Source: Ruminococcaceae bacterium UBA3323
GTDB taxonomy: Bacteria > Bacillota > Clostridia > Oscillospirales > Acutalibacteraceae
Length of the DNA stretch: 64,000 nt
Assembly (NCBI GenBank): GCA_002361935.1
Contig: DESD01000021.1
Location: forward strand, 10,872 to 74,871
Direction: 5' to 3'
The position numbers and the translations under genes are program-made. Positions within the stretch are counted from its first letter, which is position 1, and each line of letters starts with the position of its first letter. The notes below the pieces were generated by a model. That model did not search any database, was not told the origin of the DNA, and saw only the letters and a list, made by a program, of their open reading frames with translations. This document shows positions 16,344 through 26,189 of the stretch, in pieces.

Positions 16344-17237
16344 TTATTCCTTTTCACAGTAAAGCGTAATATTCGTTTTATCGGAAACAACGGCTACATT
16401 TCCGTTTATATCCGTTCTTAAAATCTTTGCGCCGATTTCGCTTAAATTATTTATCGCTTCAAAATGAGGATGATTATAGGAATTATCCTTTCCAACCTCA
16501 ATAACAGCAATACCGGGCGAAACAGCACTTACAAATTCAAAGGAGGAAGCAGTTTTACTGCCATGATGACCTACCTTTAAAACATCAGCATTCAGTTTAT
16601 CCTTTGTTGAAGCTTTTAATATTTCTGTTTCAGAAGCAGCCTCGGCATCACCCATAAACAGAAACACATTACTGCCGTATTGAAGCCTTAAAACTGCCGA
16701 ATACGCATTAAGATTATCATAATTGGCTTTCACAGGGGCAAGAAATTCGGCAGACAAATCATCTTCATCAAGAACCGCTGCACCCGCCTTTGCCGTATGG
16801 ATACTCCTGCCCTTATCGGAAATTGCAAGAAGCAGGTTTTCATATGTTTGGGTATTTGCCGAAACCTTTGGCATATAGATGTCACCGATATCAAAATGCT
16901 CAACAACCGCTTTCATTCCGCCGATATGGTCGGCATGCGGATGTGTTGCAACAAGATAATCAATTTTACTGTATCCAAGCCTAGAAATAAAATCAATTAT
17001 TGTATCTGATGCATCAGATGTTGAAGCATCAATCAGCATACATTTTCCGTCGGGAAGCTGAACAAACTCGCTGTCCCCCTGCCCTACGTCTAAATAATTT
17101 ACAACGATTGTACCGTCCGTCTGCAGGTTTTTACCTGCTTCAAGCTCTTTGGTTTCCGTAAGATAATACCCGGTAACGCTGAGCAAAGCAACAACAATAG
17201 CAGCAATAATCGTTTTTATAAGCTTTTTATTTCTCAT
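16344..17237 (-). CDS. Membrane-anchored or secreted ComEC/Rec2-type MBL-fold hydrolase
   Basis: N-terminal hydrophobic anchor, YLDVGQGD, THPHADHIGG, FMGDAE, KVGHHGS, HPH, RTD.NG. Confidence 0.85.
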   Translation of the reverse strand: MRNKKLIKTIIAAIVVALLSVTGYYLTETKELEAGKNLQTDGTIVVNYLDVGQGDSEFVQLPDGKCMLIDASTSDASDTIIDFISRLGYSKIDYLVATHPHADHIGGMKAVVEHFDIGDIYMPKVSANTQTYENLLLAISDKGRSIHTAKAGAAVLDEDDLSAEFLAPVKANYDNLNAYSAVLRLQYGSNVFLFMGDAEAASETEILKASTKDKLNADVLKVGHHGSKTASSFEFVSAVSPGIAVIEVGKDNSYNHPHFEAINNLSEIGAKILRTDINGNVAVVSDKTNITLYCEKE

Positions 17238-18520
17238 TTATCAAATCTTACCTTGATGGAGTTGGCATGCGCAGTTAAGCCCTCACTGTCTGCAAGCGTA
17301 ACAATTTCATCCTTAGCCTGTGCAAGCGCATCCTCTGTATAATAAATAAATGAAGATTTTTTTACAAAGCTGTCAACAGAGAGCGGACTGAAAAATCTTG
17401 CTGTTCCGCTTGTAGGAAGGACATGGTTCGGGCCTGCAAAATAATCACCGAGAGGTTCAGGCGACCAGTTACCAAGAAAAACAGAACCGGCATTATCAAG
17501 CATGCCTATATATTTAAGAGGCTCCTCAACACAAAGCTCAAGATGCTCGGGAGCAAGCTCATTTGCAAATTCAATAGCCTGAGCAAGATTTTCACAAACG
17601 ATTATCTCTCCATAGCTTTCAAGGGACTGCTCTATAATTTCCTGCCTTTCCAGGAACTTAATCTGCTTTTCAATTTCCTTTGCAGTAGCTTTTGCAACAG
17701 CCTCTGAGGTTGTTAAAAGAATAGAAGACGCCATTACATCATGCTCTGCCTGACTCATTAAATCAGCTGCAAGAAAGGACGGCTTTGCCGTTTTATCCGC
17801 AACAATAAGAATCTCGGACGGACCGGCAACCATATCAATATCCACAACGCCGTAAAGAAGCTTTTTGGCAGTTGCAACAAAAATATTTCCGGGACCGACA
17901 ATTTTATCAACCTTTGGTATTTTTTCCGTTCCGTAAGCAAGTGCGGCAACAGCCTGTGCACCGCCGCAAAGGAAAACCTTATCAACACCGGCAACTGCAG
18001 CAGCAGCCATAATGTTCGGGTTGGGAGAGCCATCCTTTGACGGGGGAGTTACCATTATAATCTCCTTAACCCCTGCAATCTTGGCCGGAACAGCATTCAT
18101 CAAAACAGAGCTTGGATAAGCTGCTGTGCCGCCGGGAACATAGATTCCGACTCTTTTAAGACCGCGAACACGCTGCCCCATAATCACGCCGTTTTCCTTT
18201 GTTGTAAGCCAGCTTTGCTGCGCTTGACGCTGATGGAAATCATAAATATTATTTTTAGCATCAACCACAGCCTGCTTGAAATCATCATCAACCAGATCAA
18301 GATACGCCGAAAGCTCGTCCTTTTCAATAACTGTTTTTTTAGGCACGGCACCGTCAAATCTTACGGTATATTCACGAACGGCATCATCACCGCCCTCTTT
18401 TACACCCTGAATAATGGATGAAACAATATCAACAATTTTCTGATCTGTTTCGCCGCTTCTTTTCTTCAGATTCTCAATAAGCGCATATTCGCTTTTTCCG
18501 TTTGCTTTTGTAATTTTCAT
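17234..18520 (-). CDS. hisD: Histidinol dehydrogenase
   Basis: YVPGGTAAYPSSV, KIVGPGN, DM.AGPSE, QAEHD, APEHLE, GDY.AGPNHVLPT. Confidence 0.97.
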   Translation of the reverse strand: MKITKANGKSEYALIENLKKRSGETDQKIVDIVSSIIQGVKEGGDDAVREYTVRFDGAVPKKTVIEKDELSAYLDLVDDDFKQAVVDAKNNIYDFHQRQAQQSWLTTKENGVIMGQRVRGLKRVGIYVPGGTAAYPSSVLMNAVPAKIAGVKEIIMVTPPSKDGSPNPNIMAAAAVAGVDKVFLCGGAQAVAALAYGTEKIPKVDKIVGPGNIFVATAKKLLYGVVDIDMVAGPSEILIVADKTAKPSFLAADLMSQAEHDVMASSILLTTSEAVAKATAKEIEKQIKFLERQEIIEQSLESYGEIIVCENLAQAIEFANELAPEHLELCVEEPLKYIGMLDNAGSVFLGNWSPEPLGDYFAGPNHVLPTSGTARFFSPLSVDSFVKKSSFIYYTEDALAQAKDEIVTLADSEGLTAHANSIKVRFDK

Positions 18521-18529
18521 ATTTTACCC

Positions 18530-20143
18530 TCACGCCTTACTTGCTTTTTCCATATCAGCAAGAAATGCTTCAATTTCATCCTTGCGAAGCTTCATGGAAG
18601 CCATATTAACAATAACCCTTGCAGAAATAGGGAAAATTTCCTCTACAACCTCAAGCCCGTTTTCTTTTAAAGTTGAACCTGTTTCCACAATATCAACAAT
18701 GCCGTCTGCCAAACCGAGAAGAGGCGCAAGCTCAACACTGCCTTCAATTTTAATAATATCCACATCCATACCCTTTGATTTAAAGAAATCTCTTGCAACC
18801 TTCGGATATTTTGATGCAACTGTTTTTCTTTTATAACCACTGAAAAAATCCGTATTTTTAGGACAGGCCAGCGCAAATCGGCACTTGCCGAGGTTTAAAT
18901 CCATAACCTCATAAAAGGAGCTGCCATGCTCAACAATTGTATCCTTTCCCACAACACCGATATCGCAGACACCGTGTTCAACATAGGTGATGACATCCGG
19001 TGCTTTTGAAAGAACAGCCTCATACTTATCAACGGGAAGAATTAATCTTCTGCCTTTGTTTTCAAGTTCACTTGTATCAAGCCCCATTTTCTGAAAAAGA
19101 CTGACCGATGATTTTTCAAGCCTGCCCTTTGTTAATGCAATTCGGATAGGACGCTCCACATTAATAACTTCATTCTTGGCATCACAGAGTGCATTAACAT
19201 CAACGCCAAAACCGATAGCCGGAACATCCAGACCGAATTCAGCAATAAGATTATCATATCTTCCGCCTGAAAGTATTGTTGCACCCGAGCCTTCTGCATA
19301 TCCCCTGAAAATAACGCCTGTATAATAATTTGAACGGTTAACAAGCCCCAAATCTATCATCACGGCATCAGAAATTTTCATTTCTTCAAGTTTGCCCAAA
19401 AGCGTTTTCAGATAATCAAGTGCTTTATCCGAATTTTCACTCTGATAAAGCTTTTTCGCTTCATCCAGCACCTCTGTACCGCCGAAAAGACGGGGAAGCT
19501 TATGGAGTACCTGTGTTTCCGGAGTATTTCCGATTTCATCAAGCAAATCACCGAGGGCTGCGTAATTCTTACCCTCGATAAGCTTGCATATCTCTGACTT
19601 TTCGGTTGAAGATAAATCCATTTTATCAAGCACAGCATTGAAAAAACCTGCATGGCCGATTTCAATCTTAAATGAATTAACACTTGACCTTTTCAGTGCC
19701 TCAACCGCCATAGAGATAACCTCTATATCAGCCTCAAGTGAAGCATCACCGATAAATTCAATTCCGCTCTGAGGAATTTCATCCGTAGTTCCTGCAAGCA
19801 CCTTGTTCTTAACAAAAACATTCTGGTTGTAATAAAGCCTTACAGGAAAATCTGCCTCTTTGAGCCTTGTTGCAACAAGACGGGCAATCGGCATTGTATT
19901 ATCCGGACGAAGCACTGTTGTTCTGCCGTGATTATCGGTTAATTTATACATATCATCGGCCTCAATGCCTGCATTCCCGTTTGTAAATACATCAAAAAAT
20001 TCAATCGCCGGGGTTACAACCTTACGATATGAATTTTCCTTGTATAGCGTCGAAAGTGCAGTTTCCACATTCTTTCTGTCGTCACATTCGTCAAAAAGAA
20101 AATCACGGCTGCCCTCGGGTGTTATATTTGAATATCTTTTCAT
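18530..20143 (-). CDS. hisZ-hisG: Fused ATP phosphoribosyltransferase: HisZ regulatory domain (N-terminal ~325 aa) plus short-form HisG (C-terminal ~210 aa)
   Basis: N: TPEG.RD.L, LRPDNT.PIAR, QSGIE, YYTG..F, GGRYD.L. C: IALTKGRL, YVE.G..D.G.VGKD, ASKYP, GSVELAP..GLAD.IVDIVETG.TL.ENGL. One uninterrupted 537-aa frame. Confidence 0.92.
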   Translation of the reverse strand: MKRYSNITPEGSRDFLFDECDDRKNVETALSTLYKENSYRKVVTPAIEFFDVFTNGNAGIEADDMYKLTDNHGRTTVLRPDNTMPIARLVATRLKEADFPVRLYYNQNVFVKNKVLAGTTDEIPQSGIEFIGDASLEADIEVISMAVEALKRSSVNSFKIEIGHAGFFNAVLDKMDLSSTEKSEICKLIEGKNYAALGDLLDEIGNTPETQVLHKLPRLFGGTEVLDEAKKLYQSENSDKALDYLKTLLGKLEEMKISDAVMIDLGLVNRSNYYTGVIFRGYAEGSGATILSGGRYDNLIAEFGLDVPAIGFGVDVNALCDAKNEVINVERPIRIALTKGRLEKSSVSLFQKMGLDTSELENKGRRLILPVDKYEAVLSKAPDVITYVEHGVCDIGVVGKDTIVEHGSSFYEVMDLNLGKCRFALACPKNTDFFSGYKRKTVASKYPKVARDFFKSKGMDVDIIKIEGSVELAPLLGLADGIVDIVETGSTLKENGLEVVEEIFPISARVIVNMASMKLRKDEIEAFLADMEKASKA

Positions 20144-20218: not shown

Positions 20219-23200
20219 TTAAAATAAAGAAATCTGATTACTGTCCGGCAAATCGCCCAGAGCGCCGCATTCACGAAGTGATTCAACAACACTGGAACCG
20301 ATATGCGCTCTTGCCATTAAATCATCACAGGAAATAAAATCACCATTGCCGTCGTGAACAGCATCATAAATGGATTTGGCAGCATTTTCTCCAACGCCTG
20401 AAATAGCGGAAAACGGAAGCCTGATTTTACCGTCTTCAATCTTATAGACACGCCAATCCGATTTATACAAATCAACAGACAGAAATTCTATTCCCCTTGC
20501 AAGCATTTCTATAACAATCTGATTAACAACATAGGTTGATTCTTCTTTAGCAGTAATCGGATCATTGTTTTTCTTTTTAGCATTATATTCATTCATTTTT
20601 GCCTTAACCGCCGCTTTGCCCGCAACTGCCGAAACGGCATCCAAATCGCCGCCACGAACGGTAAAATAAGCAGAATAAAAATGAATGGGATAATAAATTT
20701 TATACCACGCAAGGCGAAGCGCCGCAATAACATAAGCGGCGGCATGCGCCTTCGGGAACATGTATTTGATTTTATAACAGGAATCAATATACCACTGCTC
20801 AACACCGATTGTTTTCATTGCTTCCTCATACGGCGGAAGCTCTTTCGGAGCCTTACCCTTACGGGTATATTCCATAATCTTGAAGCAATCCTTCTTTGAT
20901 AGAGGAGATTCCTTTCCGGTTTCCTTTTCATATTTTTCTGCAACATGAATAAGATGCGTCATAATATCATCACGGCATCCGATAACCTCGGAAATCGTAC
21001 AGGTACCATTCTGAATAAGCTCCTGCGCATTACCGAGCCAAACATCCGTGCCATGTGAAAGCCCTGAAATCTGAAGCAAATCGGCAAAGGTTTTTGGCTG
21101 AGCCTCTTCAAGCATTCCGATAACAAACGGCGTTCCCATTTCGGGAATAGCAAGCGTGCCGGTATTACAGCCGATATCCTCAGGTGCCACGCCGATCGGC
21201 TCTGTTGATGTAATCAGCTGATAAAGCTTCGGATCGGCAAGATCAACATCCATAACGGGAATTCCGGTTGAATCCTCAAGATATTTATAAAGCGTGGGAT
21301 TATCGTGACCAAGTTCATCAAGCTTAAGCAATGTATCGTGAAGTGAATTTTTAAAGTCAAAATGCGTTGTATAGGTTCCCTTTGATGCATCGTTTGACGG
21401 ATACTGAATCGGTGTAAAATCTTCAACAGTATATTTATCCGGAACTACAACCATTCCGCCCGGGTGCTGACCTGTTGTGCGCTTAATACCTGTGCAGCCC
21501 TTGGTTAATCGGTCTATTTCCGCTCTTGGAGTACCGACAATATTGCGCTCATCAAGATATTTCATAACATAGCCGTATGCCGTTTTATCGGCAACAGTTG
21601 CCATTGTTCCTGCCTTAAACACATAATCCTTACCGAAAAGCTCTTCGGTATATCTATGGGAGCGTGACTGATATTCCCCGCTGAAATTAAGGTCGATATC
21701 CGGCTCCTTATCACCGTCAAACCCAAGGAAGGTTTCAAACGGAATTTCGTGGCCGTCACGTTTCATGGGTGTTCCGCATTCCGGGCAATTTTTCGGCGGC
21801 AGATCAAAGCCCGAGCCATATTCACCGTGAAGGAAAAATTCACTGTGCTTACAATTCTTACAATAATAATGCGGAGCAAGAGGATTAACCTCTGATATAC
21901 CGCCGAAATGGGCAGCAAGAGAAGAGCCTACTGAGCCTCTTGATCCAACAAGATATCCGTTTCGCTCACTCTCCTCAACAAGACGCTTTGCAATAACATA
22001 CAGCACACCGAAGCCATGGCCGATAATAGAATCCAGCTCACGCTGAAGACGGCCTGCAACATATTCGGGAACAGGATCGCCGTAAAGTTCCTTTGCCATA
22101 GACCAGCATTTTTCTGTTAACTCCTCGTTGGCACCGTCAATATGCGGCTGGAATGTTCCGGGAGGAATAGGCGGAATATTATCCATAACCATATCCGCAA
22201 TTTTATTTGGATTATCAATAACAAATTCCTTTGCCCTGTCCCCTGCCCATGCAAAATCAGCAAGCATTTCATCCGTTGTTTTAAAATAGAGAGGTGCCTG
22301 ATTATCGGCATCATCAAAACCCTTTGACGCCATAATGATAGCACGGAACTTTGCATCCTTTTCATCAAGGAAATGAACATCTCCCGTAGCAACAACAGGC
22401 TTGCCAAGCTTATCTGCAAGCGCAATGATTTTCTTGTTAATATTGATTAAATCTTCCTCGGTATTTACCTTCCAATGAAGATTTTTCTTTTCTTCGCCTT
22501 TTTTATTTGTTATATATTCCTGATCGCTTGTGCGAAGCATAAAAGCATTATTTCCGTTTGGCTGAATTTCAAGATAATCATAAAAGGAAGCAATTCTTTC
22601 AAGTTCTTCCTCAGACTCCTCACACAGAATCGCCTGATAAAGCTCACCCTGTTCACAGGCAGAGCCTAAAATCAATCCGTCACGCTTGGCTGCAAGCATG
22701 GATTTCGGAATAAGCGGACGGGTTTTATAGGTTTTTACATTTGAATGAGAAATAAGCTCATAAAGATTCTTTCTTCCGTATTTTCTTTCCTCTTTCGGAA
22801 TGCTTTCATCAAGAGAGGTATCCTCTTTTACAAGCAGAATAATGTGATGCCGTTTAAACTGATTATTTTTCAGCTTCATAAAATTGGGATATTTTTCATC
22901 ATCTACCAAATATCCTTCCATGCCAAGAATGAGTTTTATCTTTCCCTTGGCAGCATTATATGCTTCCGGAAGAGCCTGTACAACGCCATGATCTGTAACC
23001 GCTATTGCCTTATGTCCCCATTTAATTGCTCTGTTTATAAGCGCTTTCGGAGCAGTTATGCCATCCATTTCGGAAAGTGAGGTATGAAGATGAAGCTCAA
23101 CTCTTTTTTCCTCTGCGTGATCCTCTTTTTCGGCTTTAAGAACGGTTTGAATACTGTCCGGAGTAATCATATATTTTCCGGAAAAGCTATCCTCCTTATA

Positions 23201-24061
23201 TCCGCCTCTGACAATAAGGGTCTGCGCGTCTGCTATTTTGGAAGCAACGGCTTCAACAACATCCTTCGTATCAAAAACCTTTACGGATACAGACGAGGTG
23301 TAATCCGTTATATCAAAGGTTAAAATTTTATAATAGCCTCTTTTTGTATCCTTCAGCTCATAATTCAGTATATCGCCCCAGACAGTTGCAATACCTGTAT
23401 CAAAAGCAAGATCGCTGATCGGCATAGGCTTTTCCTTTATACCTTTTCCGAAAATTGTTTTTGCAGTATCTATGTAAATCGGCAAATCCCCGAGAAGAGT
23501 ATGCTTTATATTTTTAATCTCTTCCTTTTTCATTTCCTCTTCTTTAGCTTTCTTCTCGGCAGCCGCCGCCTTAGCAGCCTTTTCAACATCATAGCTTTCG
23601 GTTTCTATCATTTCGGTTTTTACGGATATGCCGAACATTTCAAGAAGGGCATTTTCAATATCCTTGTCCACACCCTGTGCCAGAAGCAAATCAAGACCGC
23701 CCTTTTTAAGCGAAATTTTAAGCACGTCCGTTTCAAGCAAAACATCGGCATCATCAAAAAAGCCGTTTGCCGCGGGATTTCTTCTTTTCACATAATCAAT
23801 AACGGATGAAAAATACCCGAGTTCAAACAAATCACTCAAATATCTTGGCTTAATGATAACCTTTTTAAGCTGCATTGCACCTTTTATATCTTTTTCTGCC
23901 GTTGCTATTTCTGAATACGGTACAAGCTCGGGAAGCGTAAGAGTAATATAAACCTCCCTGGCTTCTTTTTTTATGGTAAGACGGTCTATAACACCATCGC
24001 CAAGGCTTGACAATTGATAAGCATTAACATAACCGCCGAAATAATCTTTAAACAAACGCAT
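20219..24061 (-). CDS. polC: DNA polymerase III PolC-type alpha subunit lacking the exonuclease insert
   Basis: OB fold, PHP (ELHLHT..S.MDG, TDHG, GME, GSACE, GDVH), GSRGSVGSS, C4 Zn finger, KEPDIDLNFS, KLD.LGH, YMFPKAHAAAY; no DxETTG DEDDh block. Confidence 0.95.
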   Translation of the reverse strand: MRLFKDYFGGYVNAYQLSSLGDGVIDRLTIKKEAREVYITLTLPELVPYSEIATAEKDIKGAMQLKKVIIKPRYLSDLFELGYFSSVIDYVKRRNPAANGFFDDADVLLETDVLKISLKKGGLDLLLAQGVDKDIENALLEMFGISVKTEMIETESYDVEKAAKAAAAEKKAKEEEMKKEEIKNIKHTLLGDLPIYIDTAKTIFGKGIKEKPMPISDLAFDTGIATVWGDILNYELKDTKRGYYKILTFDITDYTSSVSVKVFDTKDVVEAVASKIADAQTLIVRGGYKEDSFSGKYMITPDSIQTVLKAEKEDHAEEKRVELHLHTSLSEMDGITAPKALINRAIKWGHKAIAVTDHGVVQALPEAYNAAKGKIKLILGMEGYLVDDEKYPNFMKLKNNQFKRHHIILLVKEDTSLDESIPKEERKYGRKNLYELISHSNVKTYKTRPLIPKSMLAAKRDGLILGSACEQGELYQAILCEESEEELERIASFYDYLEIQPNGNNAFMLRTSDQEYITNKKGEEKKNLHWKVNTEEDLININKKIIALADKLGKPVVATGDVHFLDEKDAKFRAIIMASKGFDDADNQAPLYFKTTDEMLADFAWAGDRAKEFVIDNPNKIADMVMDNIPPIPPGTFQPHIDGANEELTEKCWSMAKELYGDPVPEYVAGRLQRELDSIIGHGFGVLYVIAKRLVEESERNGYLVGSRGSVGSSLAAHFGGISEVNPLAPHYYCKNCKHSEFFLHGEYGSGFDLPPKNCPECGTPMKRDGHEIPFETFLGFDGDKEPDIDLNFSGEYQSRSHRYTEELFGKDYVFKAGTMATVADKTAYGYVMKYLDERNIVGTPRAEIDRLTKGCTGIKRTTGQHPGGMVVVPDKYTVEDFTPIQYPSNDASKGTYTTHFDFKNSLHDTLLKLDELGHDNPTLYKYLEDSTGIPVMDVDLADPKLYQLITSTEPIGVAPEDIGCNTGTLAIPEMGTPFVIGMLEEAQPKTFADLLQISGLSHGTDVWLGNAQELIQNGTCTISEVIGCRDDIMTHLIHVAEKYEKETGKESPLSKKDCFKIMEYTRKGKAPKELPPYEEAMKTIGVEQWYIDSCYKIKYMFPKAHAAAYVIAALRLAWYKIYYPIHFYSAYFTVRGGDLDAVSAVAGKAAVKAKMNEYNAKKKNNDPITAKEESTYVVNQIVIEMLARGIEFLSVDLYKSDWRVYKIEDGKIRLPFSAISGVGENAAKSIYDAVHDGNGDFISCDDLMARAHIGSSVVESLRECGALGDLPDSNQISLF

Positions 24062-25113
24062 TATAATTTATCTATCTCTTTCATTAATTCTTCAAGTAAT
24101 TTATCCTCGGGAACTTTTCGAAGTATTTCTCCCTTTTTAAAAATAAGTCCGTTGCCGTCTCCTCCTGCAATGCCGATATCGGCTTCCTTTGCTTCTCCGG
24201 GACCGTTTACGATACAGCCCATAACGGCAACCTTAATTGGTTTTTTGCAATCCTTTAATCTTTCTTCAACCTGTTTTGCAAGACCGATTAAATCAATTTT
24301 TGTTCTGCCGCAGGTTGGGCAGGAAATAAGATAAGGGCAATCCTTTTTCAGCCCTACTGCTTTTAAAATATCAAATGCCGCAAATACCTCTTTCACAGGT
24401 TTATCGGAAAGACTTACACGAATCGTATCGCCTATTCCCCTTGTTAAAAGAGAGCCTATTCCAACGGATGATTTGATTATGCCCATCCTTTCCGTTCCTG
24501 CTTCTGTTACACCAAGATGAAGAGGATATCTGCATTTTTCAGAGGCAAGCTCATAAGCGGAAATCATTGTATTCACATCCGATGATTTGATTGAAATAAC
24601 AATATCATCAAAATCAAACTTCTCAAGAAGTGATGCATGATACAGTGCGGATTCAACCATGGCTTCCGGTGTCGGAGAGCCGTACTTTGCAAGAATTTCT
24701 TTTTCAAGGCTGCCGCTGTTTACACCTATTCTGATAGGAAGCCCCTTTAATCTGCATATATCGGCAACCGCCTTAACTCTTGATTCATCGCCGATATTAC
24801 CCGGATTAATTCTGATTTTATCTATTCCTCTTTCAGCTGCACCAAGTGCAAGCTTATAATCAAAATGAATATCTGCAACAAGAGGAACATCAACAGCCTT
24901 TTTTATAGGCTCTATAAGCGCAAGCGCCTTATCATCGGGAATTGCAAAACGAATTACCTGACAGCCTGCTGCGGCAAGCTCCTTTGCCTGTTCAACCGAG
25001 CCCTTGATATCAGAAGCAGGCATGTTAAGCATAGACTGAACAAGAACAGGCGCATCTCCGCCGATAAAAGTATTTTTCAGCTTTATTTTTTTTGTTTCTC
25101 TTCTTTTAATCAT
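24061..25113 (-). CDS. ispG: HMBPP synthase
   Basis: VQSM, PLVADIHFDY, RINPGNIG, IRIGVNSGSL, HLGVTEAG, GIGDTIRVSL, SCPTCGRT, VMGC.VNGPGEA. Confidence 0.97.
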   Translation of the reverse strand: MIKRRETKKIKLKNTFIGGDAPVLVQSMLNMPASDIKGSVEQAKELAAAGCQVIRFAIPDDKALALIEPIKKAVDVPLVADIHFDYKLALGAAERGIDKIRINPGNIGDESRVKAVADICRLKGLPIRIGVNSGSLEKEILAKYGSPTPEAMVESALYHASLLEKFDFDDIVISIKSSDVNTMISAYELASEKCRYPLHLGVTEAGTERMGIIKSSVGIGSLLTRGIGDTIRVSLSDKPVKEVFAAFDILKAVGLKKDCPYLISCPTCGRTKIDLIGLAKQVEERLKDCKKPIKVAVMGCIVNGPGEAKEADIGIAGGDGNGLIFKKGEILRKVPEDKLLEELMKEIDKL

Positions 25114-25148: not shown

Positions 25149-26189
25149 TTAAAACAGCCTTTTTATATCCGAAAATGTTACAAAGAACATAAGAAGCAGC
25201 AATAAAGCAAGACCGACTGCATTGATAATATATTCCCATTTTGCAGGAAGCTTTCTCTTCGTTATGCCCTCTGCAAGAAGCACGAAGAAACGCCAGCCAT
25301 CAAGAGCAGGAATCGGGAAAAGATTGAACAGACCGACATTTATTGTTAGCAATGCCATGATTCTGAGCATGGAGCTGAAGCTTGTTTTAACAGCATCCGA
25401 AACAACGGAAACAGCGCCTACCGGACCGCTTAAATCCGATAATCCATACTTGCCTACAAGAATATCATGGATAGAAAGAAACACCATTCGTGCATACGAA
25501 ACAAAATTGCCCGCTGTGCTGGATAAAACTCCTGTAAAGGTCTTTTCCTTGCCAAGCAGCCAAAAGTCCATTTTGATATACTGATGCCCCTCATACTCAT
25601 CCATATCAAAGGAAATATTAAGGGTAACGTCCTTTCCGTTCCTGTTTACAATCATTTCAACCTTTCCGTCTGATGAACGGGAAAAGCCCGTATTCACATC
25701 GGTTGGTGTATAAACCCTCATACCGTCTATCGCCTTGATTTCATCGCCTGCCTGAAGCCCGTATGACGGGCTGACAGCATCATCGGCAAATTTTGCAACG
25801 GTTGTTGTGCCGACTAAATTCTGATTGCATACAAGACAAAGAACAATGACAAAGCCGAGCAGCAGATTCATAATTGCGCCTGCAACTACAACAAAAATTC
25901 TTGCGCCAACCTTTTTCTTGGAAAAGGAGCCGTCGCCGTCTGACTCCTCATCCTCACCCTCCATGGCACAAAAGCCGCCTATCGGGAACAGCCGAACGGA
26001 ATACCTTGTTTCTTTCCTTTGAAAAGAAATGATTTTTGGACCCATACCGATTGCAAATTCATTTACCTTTATTTTCATAAGCTTTGCAGCAACAAAATGA
26101 CCGCCCTCATGAATAATAACAATAAATTCAAAAAATAAAATTGCAATTATGATTGGATAAGCTGCATTCCATATTGATGATAAATTCAC
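25149..26189 (-). CDS. rseP: Site-2 intramembrane zinc metalloprotease RseP/RasP
   Basis: HEGGH (HExxH), GGFCAMEGE, PDZ-like region, NLFPIPALDG. Confidence 0.93.
   Translation of the reverse strand: MNLSSIWNAAYPIIIAILFFEFIVIIHEGGHFVAAKLMKIKVNEFAIGMGPKIISFQRKETRYSVRLFPIGGFCAMEGEDEESDGDGSFSKKKVGARIFVVVAGAIMNLLLGFVIVLCLVCNQNLVGTTTVAKFADDAVSPSYGLQAGDEIKAIDGMRVYTPTDVNTGFSRSSDGKVEMIVNRNGKDVTLNISFDMDEYEGHQYIKMDFWLLGKEKTFTGVLSSTAGNFVSYARMVFLSIHDILVGKYGLSDLSGPVGAVSVVSDAVKTSFSSMLRIMALLTINVGLFNLFPIPALDGWRFFVLLAEGITKRKLPAKWEYIINAVGLALLLLLMFFVTFSDIKRLF

Follow-up and report, generated by a model that had tools for sequence, protein, structure and literature searches.

In canonical PolC, a DNA polymerase III alpha subunit, a DEDDh exonuclease (Exo) domain is inserted in a loop beside the metal site of the PHP domain (PMC5636811). 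PolCs without this insert were described by Timinskas, Balvociute, Timinskas & Venclovas (NAR 2014; PMC3919608), in whose survey they made up 6% of PolCs, occurred exclusively in Clostridia and Negativicutes, and were always paired with DnaE1, accounting for 16% of PolC + DnaE1 systems. Engineered PolCs of the delta-Exo type fold and are fast polymerases (PMC3656037), and the crystallised Geobacillus kaustophilus construct is itself one from which Exo was removed by engineering (PMC3656037, PMC3919608). The DnaE1 polymerases of Mycobacterium tuberculosis (Mtb) and Thermus, which have nine PHP ligands, proofread via PHP, while the G. kaustophilus PolC has no PHP exonuclease activity (PMC5636811). 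In Clostridium thermocellum, a member of the Clostridia with a PolC + DnaE1 system, the PolC change C669Y gives a ~30-fold mutator. Here we describe the polC gene of Ruminococcaceae bacterium UBA3323 (family Acutalibacteraceae; assembly GCA_002361935.1), located in a 64,000-nucleotide stretch of contig DESD01000021.1 (positions 10,872 to 74,871), hereafter the window, to which coordinates refer unless a contig is named.

This gene is the organism's single, functional polC, of the described exo-less class composed of an N-terminal domain (NTD), OB fold, PHP domain, Pol3 core and helix-hairpin-helix (HhH) domain. Its product passes the equivalog thresholds of both NF001688 (1357.1 bits; cut-off 873) and TIGR01405 (1231.6 bits, as a split match; cut-off 1043.45) in profile searches. 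The domain order is that of PolC, with the N-terminal domain first, the OB fold before PHP, then the Pol3 core, HhH and a C-terminal clamp motif, as laid out in the following features.

20219..24061, minus strand: polC, encoding an exo-less PolC-type DNA polymerase III alpha subunit of 1280 amino acids (aa), a single open reading frame (ORF).
23861..24007, minus strand: PolC N-terminal domain I, residues 19-67 (PF14480, E 7e-5).
23147..23341, minus strand: OB fold, N-terminal to PHP as in PolC, residues 241-305 (PF01336, a weak match with E 5e-4, below the gathering score; aligns to the OB domain of 3f2b).
22916..23098, minus strand: N-terminal part of the PHP domain, residues 322-382, with ligands H324, H326, D333, H358 and E382 (PF02811, E 1e-26; ligand columns invariant in 120 aligned PolCs).
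22847..22915, minus strand: 23-residue loop GYLVDDEKYPNFMKLKNNQFKRH, residues 383-405, at the Exo position of canonical PolC (from the translation and a comparison of insert lengths).
22124..22846, minus strand: C-terminal part of the PHP domain, residues 406-646, with ligands H406, C469, D561 and H563 (Pfam and ligand alignment).
20495..22123, minus strand: polymerase core (palm, thumb, fingers), residues 647-1189, with catalytic D788, D790 and D915 (PF07733, E 8.5e-52; PF17657, E 6e-17).
21776..21862, minus strand: zinc finger with four cysteines, C734, C737, C759 and C762 (columns 100% conserved in exo-less and canonical PolCs).
20246..20494, minus strand: tandem HhH domain, residues 1190-1272 (PF14579, HHH_6, E 6e-14).
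20222..20236, minus strand: C-terminal beta-clamp-binding motif QISLF, residues 1276-1280 (a Q-[ILM]-[ST]-[LFM]-F terminus is kept in both groups).

The QISLF terminus we take to be the clamp motif from established knowledge of PolC. The catalytic aspartate columns are 100% conserved, as much in exo-less as in canonical PolCs.

The absence of Exo is seen in several comparisons. The NF001688 match falls into two pieces, profile positions 24-436 and 624-1444, the second corresponding to query residues 427-1280; the ~190 positions skipped in between (~436-624) form the DnaQ-like Exo insert. Full-length PolC of Enterococcus faecium (9qpc) likewise aligns as two stretches, with chain residues 431-649 skipped, and one continuous alignment is obtained with 3f2b, the engineered delta-Exo construct of G. 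kaustophilus. Translation of 22826-22924 on the minus strand gives GMEGYLVDDEKYPNFMKLKNNQFKRHHIILLVK, which spans the junction, and exactly 23 residues separate the PHP ligands E382 and H406. In the alignment, the insert at the Exo position measures 209-220 residues in canonical relatives and 13-39 in exo-less ones. A Pfam scan of the product did not find RNase_T (PF00929) and did find the other PolC domains; a regular-expression search for D.ET, HN..FD and H.A..D returned no match anywhere in the 1280 residues. Since the DEDDh hallmark of canonical PolC is missing, the gene was filed under the exo-less variant.

These results bear out most of what the sequence-only reading had noted at this locus, namely the lack of DEDDh motifs, a canonical Exo domain of about 200 residues at this very point, nine recognisable PHP ligands (H324 through H563 in the alignment), and intact polymerase motifs and zinc finger (D788, D790, D915 and the four cysteines all lie in invariant columns). 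Its short Glu-to-His gap at 22835-22925 is confirmed in length, at 23 residues, and displaced in position by a few bases.

An AlphaFold2 model covering residues 226-1280 reached a mean predicted local distance difference test score (pLDDT) of 71.9 and a predicted TM-score (pTM) of 0.47, with a poorly modelled palm; within this overall mediocre model, the loop and its flanking PHP strands are modelled confidently, at pLDDT 84-90. Additionally, positions 483-485 (window ~22607-22615) have shifted independently in the exo-less clades from canonical P-W to S/D/E, possibly reflecting a former PHP-Exo interface that became solvent exposed.

The gene bears the marks of a maintained function. Compared with its nearest relative, its ratio of nonsynonymous to synonymous substitution rates (dN/dS) is 0.042 over the whole gene, 0.054 for PHP and 0.023 for the polymerase core, at a dS of 0.71. 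The source is a metagenome-assembled genome (MAG) of 2.02 Mb in 71 contigs, 92% complete. A genome-wide profile search found no second polC in this assembly, and a search of this genome for a separately encoded NTD-OB-Exo 'mini-PolC' found none. All complete polC genes in the genomes of 24 congeneric species are exo-less. Exo-less PolC is also found in 80 named public records, that of the cultured Eubacterium coprostanoligenes ATCC 51222 (Clostridia) included; hundreds of cluster representatives of ~1280 aa lack PF00929, and the exo-less state is sequence-confirmed in 39 genera, one closed 2.0-Mb genome among them. The earlier suggestion that the gene is evolved and not damaged finds full support in the dN/dS of 0.04 and in the architecture itself, which recurs throughout the genus, in a cultured type strain and in roughly one third of the genera of the family.

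As a separate observation on the public records, bins L074, L023, L029, L039, L046 and L058, which carry an exo-less PolC of the window's family, are labelled 'Agathobacter rectalis' or 'Bacteroides sp.'. L074 is near-identical to the family genome G354, and all of these bins look mislabelled or contaminated.

The distribution within the family was surveyed with one genome per genus, 131 genomes in all. About 81 carry a canonical PolC (~1360-1520 aa) and 39 a full-length exo-less PolC with an insert of 13-39 aa; the rest comprise 2 undecidable cases at contig ends, 1 with a 185-aa insert without DEDDh motifs and 8 without a PolC match. The exo-less share is about one third (~39 of ~123 genera). 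The contig-truncated ORFs G296, G328 and G374 are not callable as exo-less, and G374 is in fact canonical, with the Exo half on another contig. At the level of the order, the other families mostly have canonical PolC, and family f5 gave no PolC match in any of its 17 genomes (17/17). In G324, one of the 8 PolC-less genera, a 469-aa ORF includes a strong RNase_T domain resembling PolC Exo (G324:C20:16620-17081).

Mapping of the exo-less state onto PolC trees built with the insert columns removed (FastTree, 116 rows; IQ-TREE, 85 rows) requires 11 changes on both trees, of which at least 8 (FastTree) and at least 9 (IQ-TREE) are forced by well-supported branches. The outgroup PolCs are canonical, and the exo-less linkers vary in length and sequence between clades. 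The simplest reading of these trees and alignments is that Exo was deleted repeatedly and independently within the family. A single ancestral loss was considered and rejected by an approximately unbiased (AU) test against one exo-less clade (delta log-likelihood 831, p 2e-59). The window PolC falls in a fully supported, all-exo-less clade of 25 members, within which the loop pattern LVDD-x-x-YPDFM...RHH is conserved. The one PolC with a 185-aa insert at the Exo position (L123, G292:C1:50016-57480; 1441 aa) has lost all DEDDh motifs, and this insert appears to be a decayed exonuclease, possibly an intermediate between the canonical and exo-less states.

We then considered what proofreads the product of such a gene. 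All nine PHP ligands are present (H324, H326, D333, H358, E382, H406, C469, D561 and H563), and the combination HHDHEHCDH is kept in every exo-less PolC (60/60) and every canonical PolC (60/60) aligned from the order. The eighth ligand, D, is replaced by N in Bacilli PolCs, as seen in the G. kaustophilus alignment. The loop at the PHP site here has a DnaE1-like length, and C469 corresponds to C669 of C. thermocellum PolC, the PHP cysteine ligand whose change gives the mutator described above. Three mechanisms had been put forward from the sequence, namely PHP proofreading, a trans-acting epsilon-like subunit and lower fidelity. The first, exercised by both PolC and the intact DnaE1 of this genome, is the best-supported candidate, with sequence conservation and the C669Y genetics in C. 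thermocellum speaking for it; the second is disfavoured, and the third stays in consideration with the low probability given below.

In the proposed mechanism, the nine-ligand trinuclear PHP site of clostridial PolC would act as a 3'-5' exonuclease, like that of the Mycobacterium and Thermus DnaE1s, and would edit PolC errors in cis. With such an exonuclease at work, the DEDDh domain would be redundant and repeatedly expendable. DnaE1 would rely on the PHP site of its own for proofreading, and both polymerases would have MutS-dependent mismatch repair as a backup. Taken as a whole, this explanation, a functional exo-less PolC of known class that proofreads in cis through PHP with DnaE1 and MutS as backup, is in our judgement the probable one.

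Several points weigh against it. We found no exonuclease assay of any natural exo-less PolC in the literature. Canonical relatives have just as intact a PHP site, and its conservation is not specific to exo-less PolCs; nor is the intact site a special compensation for the lost domain, canonical PolCs of the order having it too (60/60). The site may instead serve a structural or a pyrophosphatase role, as proposed for the PHP domain of E. coli DnaE. The mutator effect of C669Y may stem from destabilisation rather than from loss of a PHP nuclease. A gene may be missing from the assembly, the MAG being 92% complete, and the AlphaFold2 model, with its mean pLDDT of 72, is mediocre overall as a prediction.

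A broader proposal is that the PHP trinuclear site, and not the DEDDh domain, may be the working PolC proofreader in clostridial PolC + DnaE1 replisomes generally, with a bolder extension to two genomes described below that may rely on exo-less PolC alone. We advance it tentatively, as a serious possibility that falls a little short of probable. If true, it would explain why one family discarded DEDDh at least nine times and why one genus holds a decayed insert, as well as why the genomes of about one in four exo-less genera contain no DEDDh domain. Natural exo-less PolCs, that of E. coprostanoligenes ATCC 51222 included, would then be the first PolCs with a demonstrable PHP exonuclease.

The second polymerase of this genome is a full-length DnaE1 of 1153 aa, with its C-terminal domain (NF005298, 1612 against a cut-off of 1260; NF004226, 1361 against 1002). 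Its PHP site is intact (HHDHEHCDH), as it is in 11 of 12 DnaE1s from other exo-less genomes. By its gene content, this is a clostridial PolC + DnaE1 system, and the genome also encodes MutS1.

Two kinds of departure from this pattern were observed. In G187 (L198, G187:C32), an exo-less genome that lacks RNase_T domains, DnaE1 has a disrupted PHP site (HHNGEHGDR); the same genome has a second, shorter PolC-like ORF of 851 aa (G187:C20:9578-11758), covering profile positions 612-1360. The sister genera G321 and G388 (L090, L085), represented by 1.4-Mb MAGs that are 93% and 96% complete, yielded no DnaE-type alpha subunit and no RNase_T, and have exo-less PolC only. Their nearest relatives carry DnaE1, and the genus of G321 consists of a single genome. 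Replication of these two with exo-less PolC alone is the bolder extension mentioned above and the less likely reading, gaps in the MAGs being possible; if true, it would break the rule that every bacterium has DnaE.

These data bear directly on the strongest alternative to cis-proofreading by PolC, a possibility raised by Timinskas et al. (PMC3919608). Here DnaE1 would be the main, self-proofreading replicase and PolC a subsidiary enzyme whose proofreading is dispensable, its PHP site being kept for structure or some other activity. The full-length DnaE1 with its intact PHP site fits this division of labour, as do the PolC-less genomes (one family of the order, 17/17, and 8 genera of the window's family) and the equal conservation of the PHP site in canonical PolCs. 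It is countered by the very strong purifying selection on PolC, with nine PHP ligands invariant in 60/60 exo-less PolCs, and by C. thermocellum, where a ~30-fold mutator arising from a change in a PolC PHP ligand implies that PolC synthesises much of the genome and that its PHP site matters for fidelity. The disrupted DnaE1 PHP site of G187 and the two exo-less genomes without any DnaE match also speak against it. We consider this alternative unlikely, while giving it more weight than those that follow.

A second alternative dispenses with PolC proofreading altogether, less accurate replication being tolerated, or buffered by mismatch repair, in gut anaerobes with small genomes. PHP exonuclease activity has been shown for no PolC and is absent from that of G. 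kaustophilus; the latter enzyme, however, is one ligand short, whereas the PolC described here has all nine. MutS1 is available in this genome for buffering. Compared without correction for phylogeny, exo-less genomes are the smaller ones (median 1.7 vs 2.3 Mb, Mann-Whitney p 6e-5), yet the signal is gone in phylogenetically independent pairs (median p 0.69), and no tie between Exo loss and genome reduction is claimed on this ground. Nine ligands that stay invariant over at least nine independent Exo losses are, moreover, hard to explain if the site is functionless. This reading is improbable.

Less probable still is a third alternative, in which Exo was split off rather than lost and a separate DnaQ/epsilon-like DEDDh exonuclease proofreads PolC in trans. 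A search of the whole genome for RNase_T ORFs returned one, of 316 aa, with the motifs DVETTG, HNLEFD and HRSLSD, in the following setting.

G000 contig C36, ~16441-18865 (L186 10442-12866): region of the 316-aa DEDDh exonuclease, next to tRNA-Ser(GGA) and a tyrosine integrase of phage type; a repressor-like helix-turn-helix gene lies nearby.

The closest similarity of this ORF is to the Exo segment of PolC and to phage proteins called 'DNA polymerase exonuclease subunit', as would suit a trans-acting proofreader. It is also the first cargo gene beside the tRNA-Ser and the phage integrase, and this setting, the repressor-like gene and a match to phrog_192 ('DNA polymerase exonuclease subunit') mark it as the cargo of an integrated element; by these signs it looks like part of a prophage or integrative element. 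The search for stand-alone DnaQ/DEDDh genes recommended by the sequence-only reading yields this one ORF, which is prophage-like and not a conserved partner. Among the congeners, stand-alone PolC-Exo-like ORFs are sporadic (only ~7 of 25) and very different in length (188-564 aa). No conserved chromosomal stand-alone DEDDh gene, of the kind an epsilon-type replisome would have in all members, was found. Furthermore, 11 genera with completeness of 93-100%, all of them exo-less, gave zero PF00929 matches at E <= 1e-5. With the only DEDDh gene of this genome prophage-like and 11 exo-less genera free of DEDDh, a dedicated epsilon-like partner is unlikely.

A ~300-aa KapD/ERI-like RNase_T protein, common in the family, would be the other possible trans-acting nuclease. 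It occurs equally in canonical genomes and gave no tblastn match in this assembly, and it was rejected as a specific substitute for Exo on both counts.

The remaining alternative, a collapsed assembly or a pseudogene in decay, draws on the 71-contig MAG source. It is effectively refuted by the recurrence of the architecture in a cultured isolate, in closed genomes and in independent assemblies numbering in the hundreds, and by the open frame, the dN/dS of 0.04 and the retention of all catalytic motifs.

The surroundings of polC are those of its canonical slot, with rseP-ispG-polC synteny formed by two neighbours.

24061..25113, minus strand: ispG, upstream neighbour of polC in the canonical slot (NF001540, 485 bits against a cut-off of 345).
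25149..26189, minus strand: rseP, which belongs to the canonical rseP-ispG-polC synteny (TIGR00054, 219 bits; cut-off 147.6).

Directly downstream of polC, a 537-aa ORF (18530-20143, minus strand) is a HisZ-HisG fusion, with HisZ at residues 13-324 (TIGR00443, 319 bits) and a short-form HisG at residues 333-512 (TIGR00070, 191 bits).

The division of labour and the identity of the proofreading nuclease in the clostridial PolC + DnaE1 replisome are an explicit question in the literature. Natural exo-less PolCs are ready test cases for it, as any 3'-5' exonuclease must come from the PHP site, and the cultured type strain E. coprostanoligenes ATCC 51222 makes biochemistry and mutation-rate work feasible. 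The variant is also relevant to PolC-targeted antibiotics and to annotation pipelines that expect a PolC of ~1440 aa.

Among known systems, the PHP-proofreading DnaE1s of Mtb and Thermus (PMC5636811) share with the window PolC the nine-ligand trinuclear site and the lack of dependence on DEDDh. The Glu-to-His PHP loop has 23 residues here and 20 in the organism's own DnaE1, compared with a reported 29 in Mtb and 18 in Thermus aquaticus (Taq) (PMC5636811). The window PolC differs from these DnaE1s in belonging to another branch of the C family, that of PolC. With canonical PolC (B. subtilis; G. kaustophilus, 3F2B; E. faecium, 9QPC) it shares the core, the zinc finger, the OB fold before PHP, HhH and the clamp motif, and it lacks the ~200-aa DEDDh exonuclease. 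Unlike Bacilli PolCs, in which N occupies the eighth position and PHP is without nuclease activity, it has all nine PHP ligands. Engineered delta-Exo constructs made for crystallography and kinetics resemble it, whereas the window PolC is natural and keeps its N-terminal domain.

The closest match is with the exo-less PolCs of Timinskas et al., which share the NTD-OB-PHP-Pol3-HhH architecture without Exo, the occurrence in Clostridia, the pairing with DnaE1 (not DnaE3) and the conserved PHP site. Nothing essential separates the two, and the window lineage, the Eubacterium coprostanoligenes group and its relatives, mostly MAGs, was probably outside the 2014 set. The novelty implied by the sequence-only reading does not stand; the finding is a correct rediscovery of a variant published in 2013-14, whose architecture and taxonomic restriction were already known. 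The present analysis adds at least nine Exo losses in one family, 11 exo-less genera free of DEDDh, and a genome whose only DEDDh gene is prophage-like. Of these, the recurrent loss within one family and the DEDDh-free genomes exceed what Timinskas et al. state.

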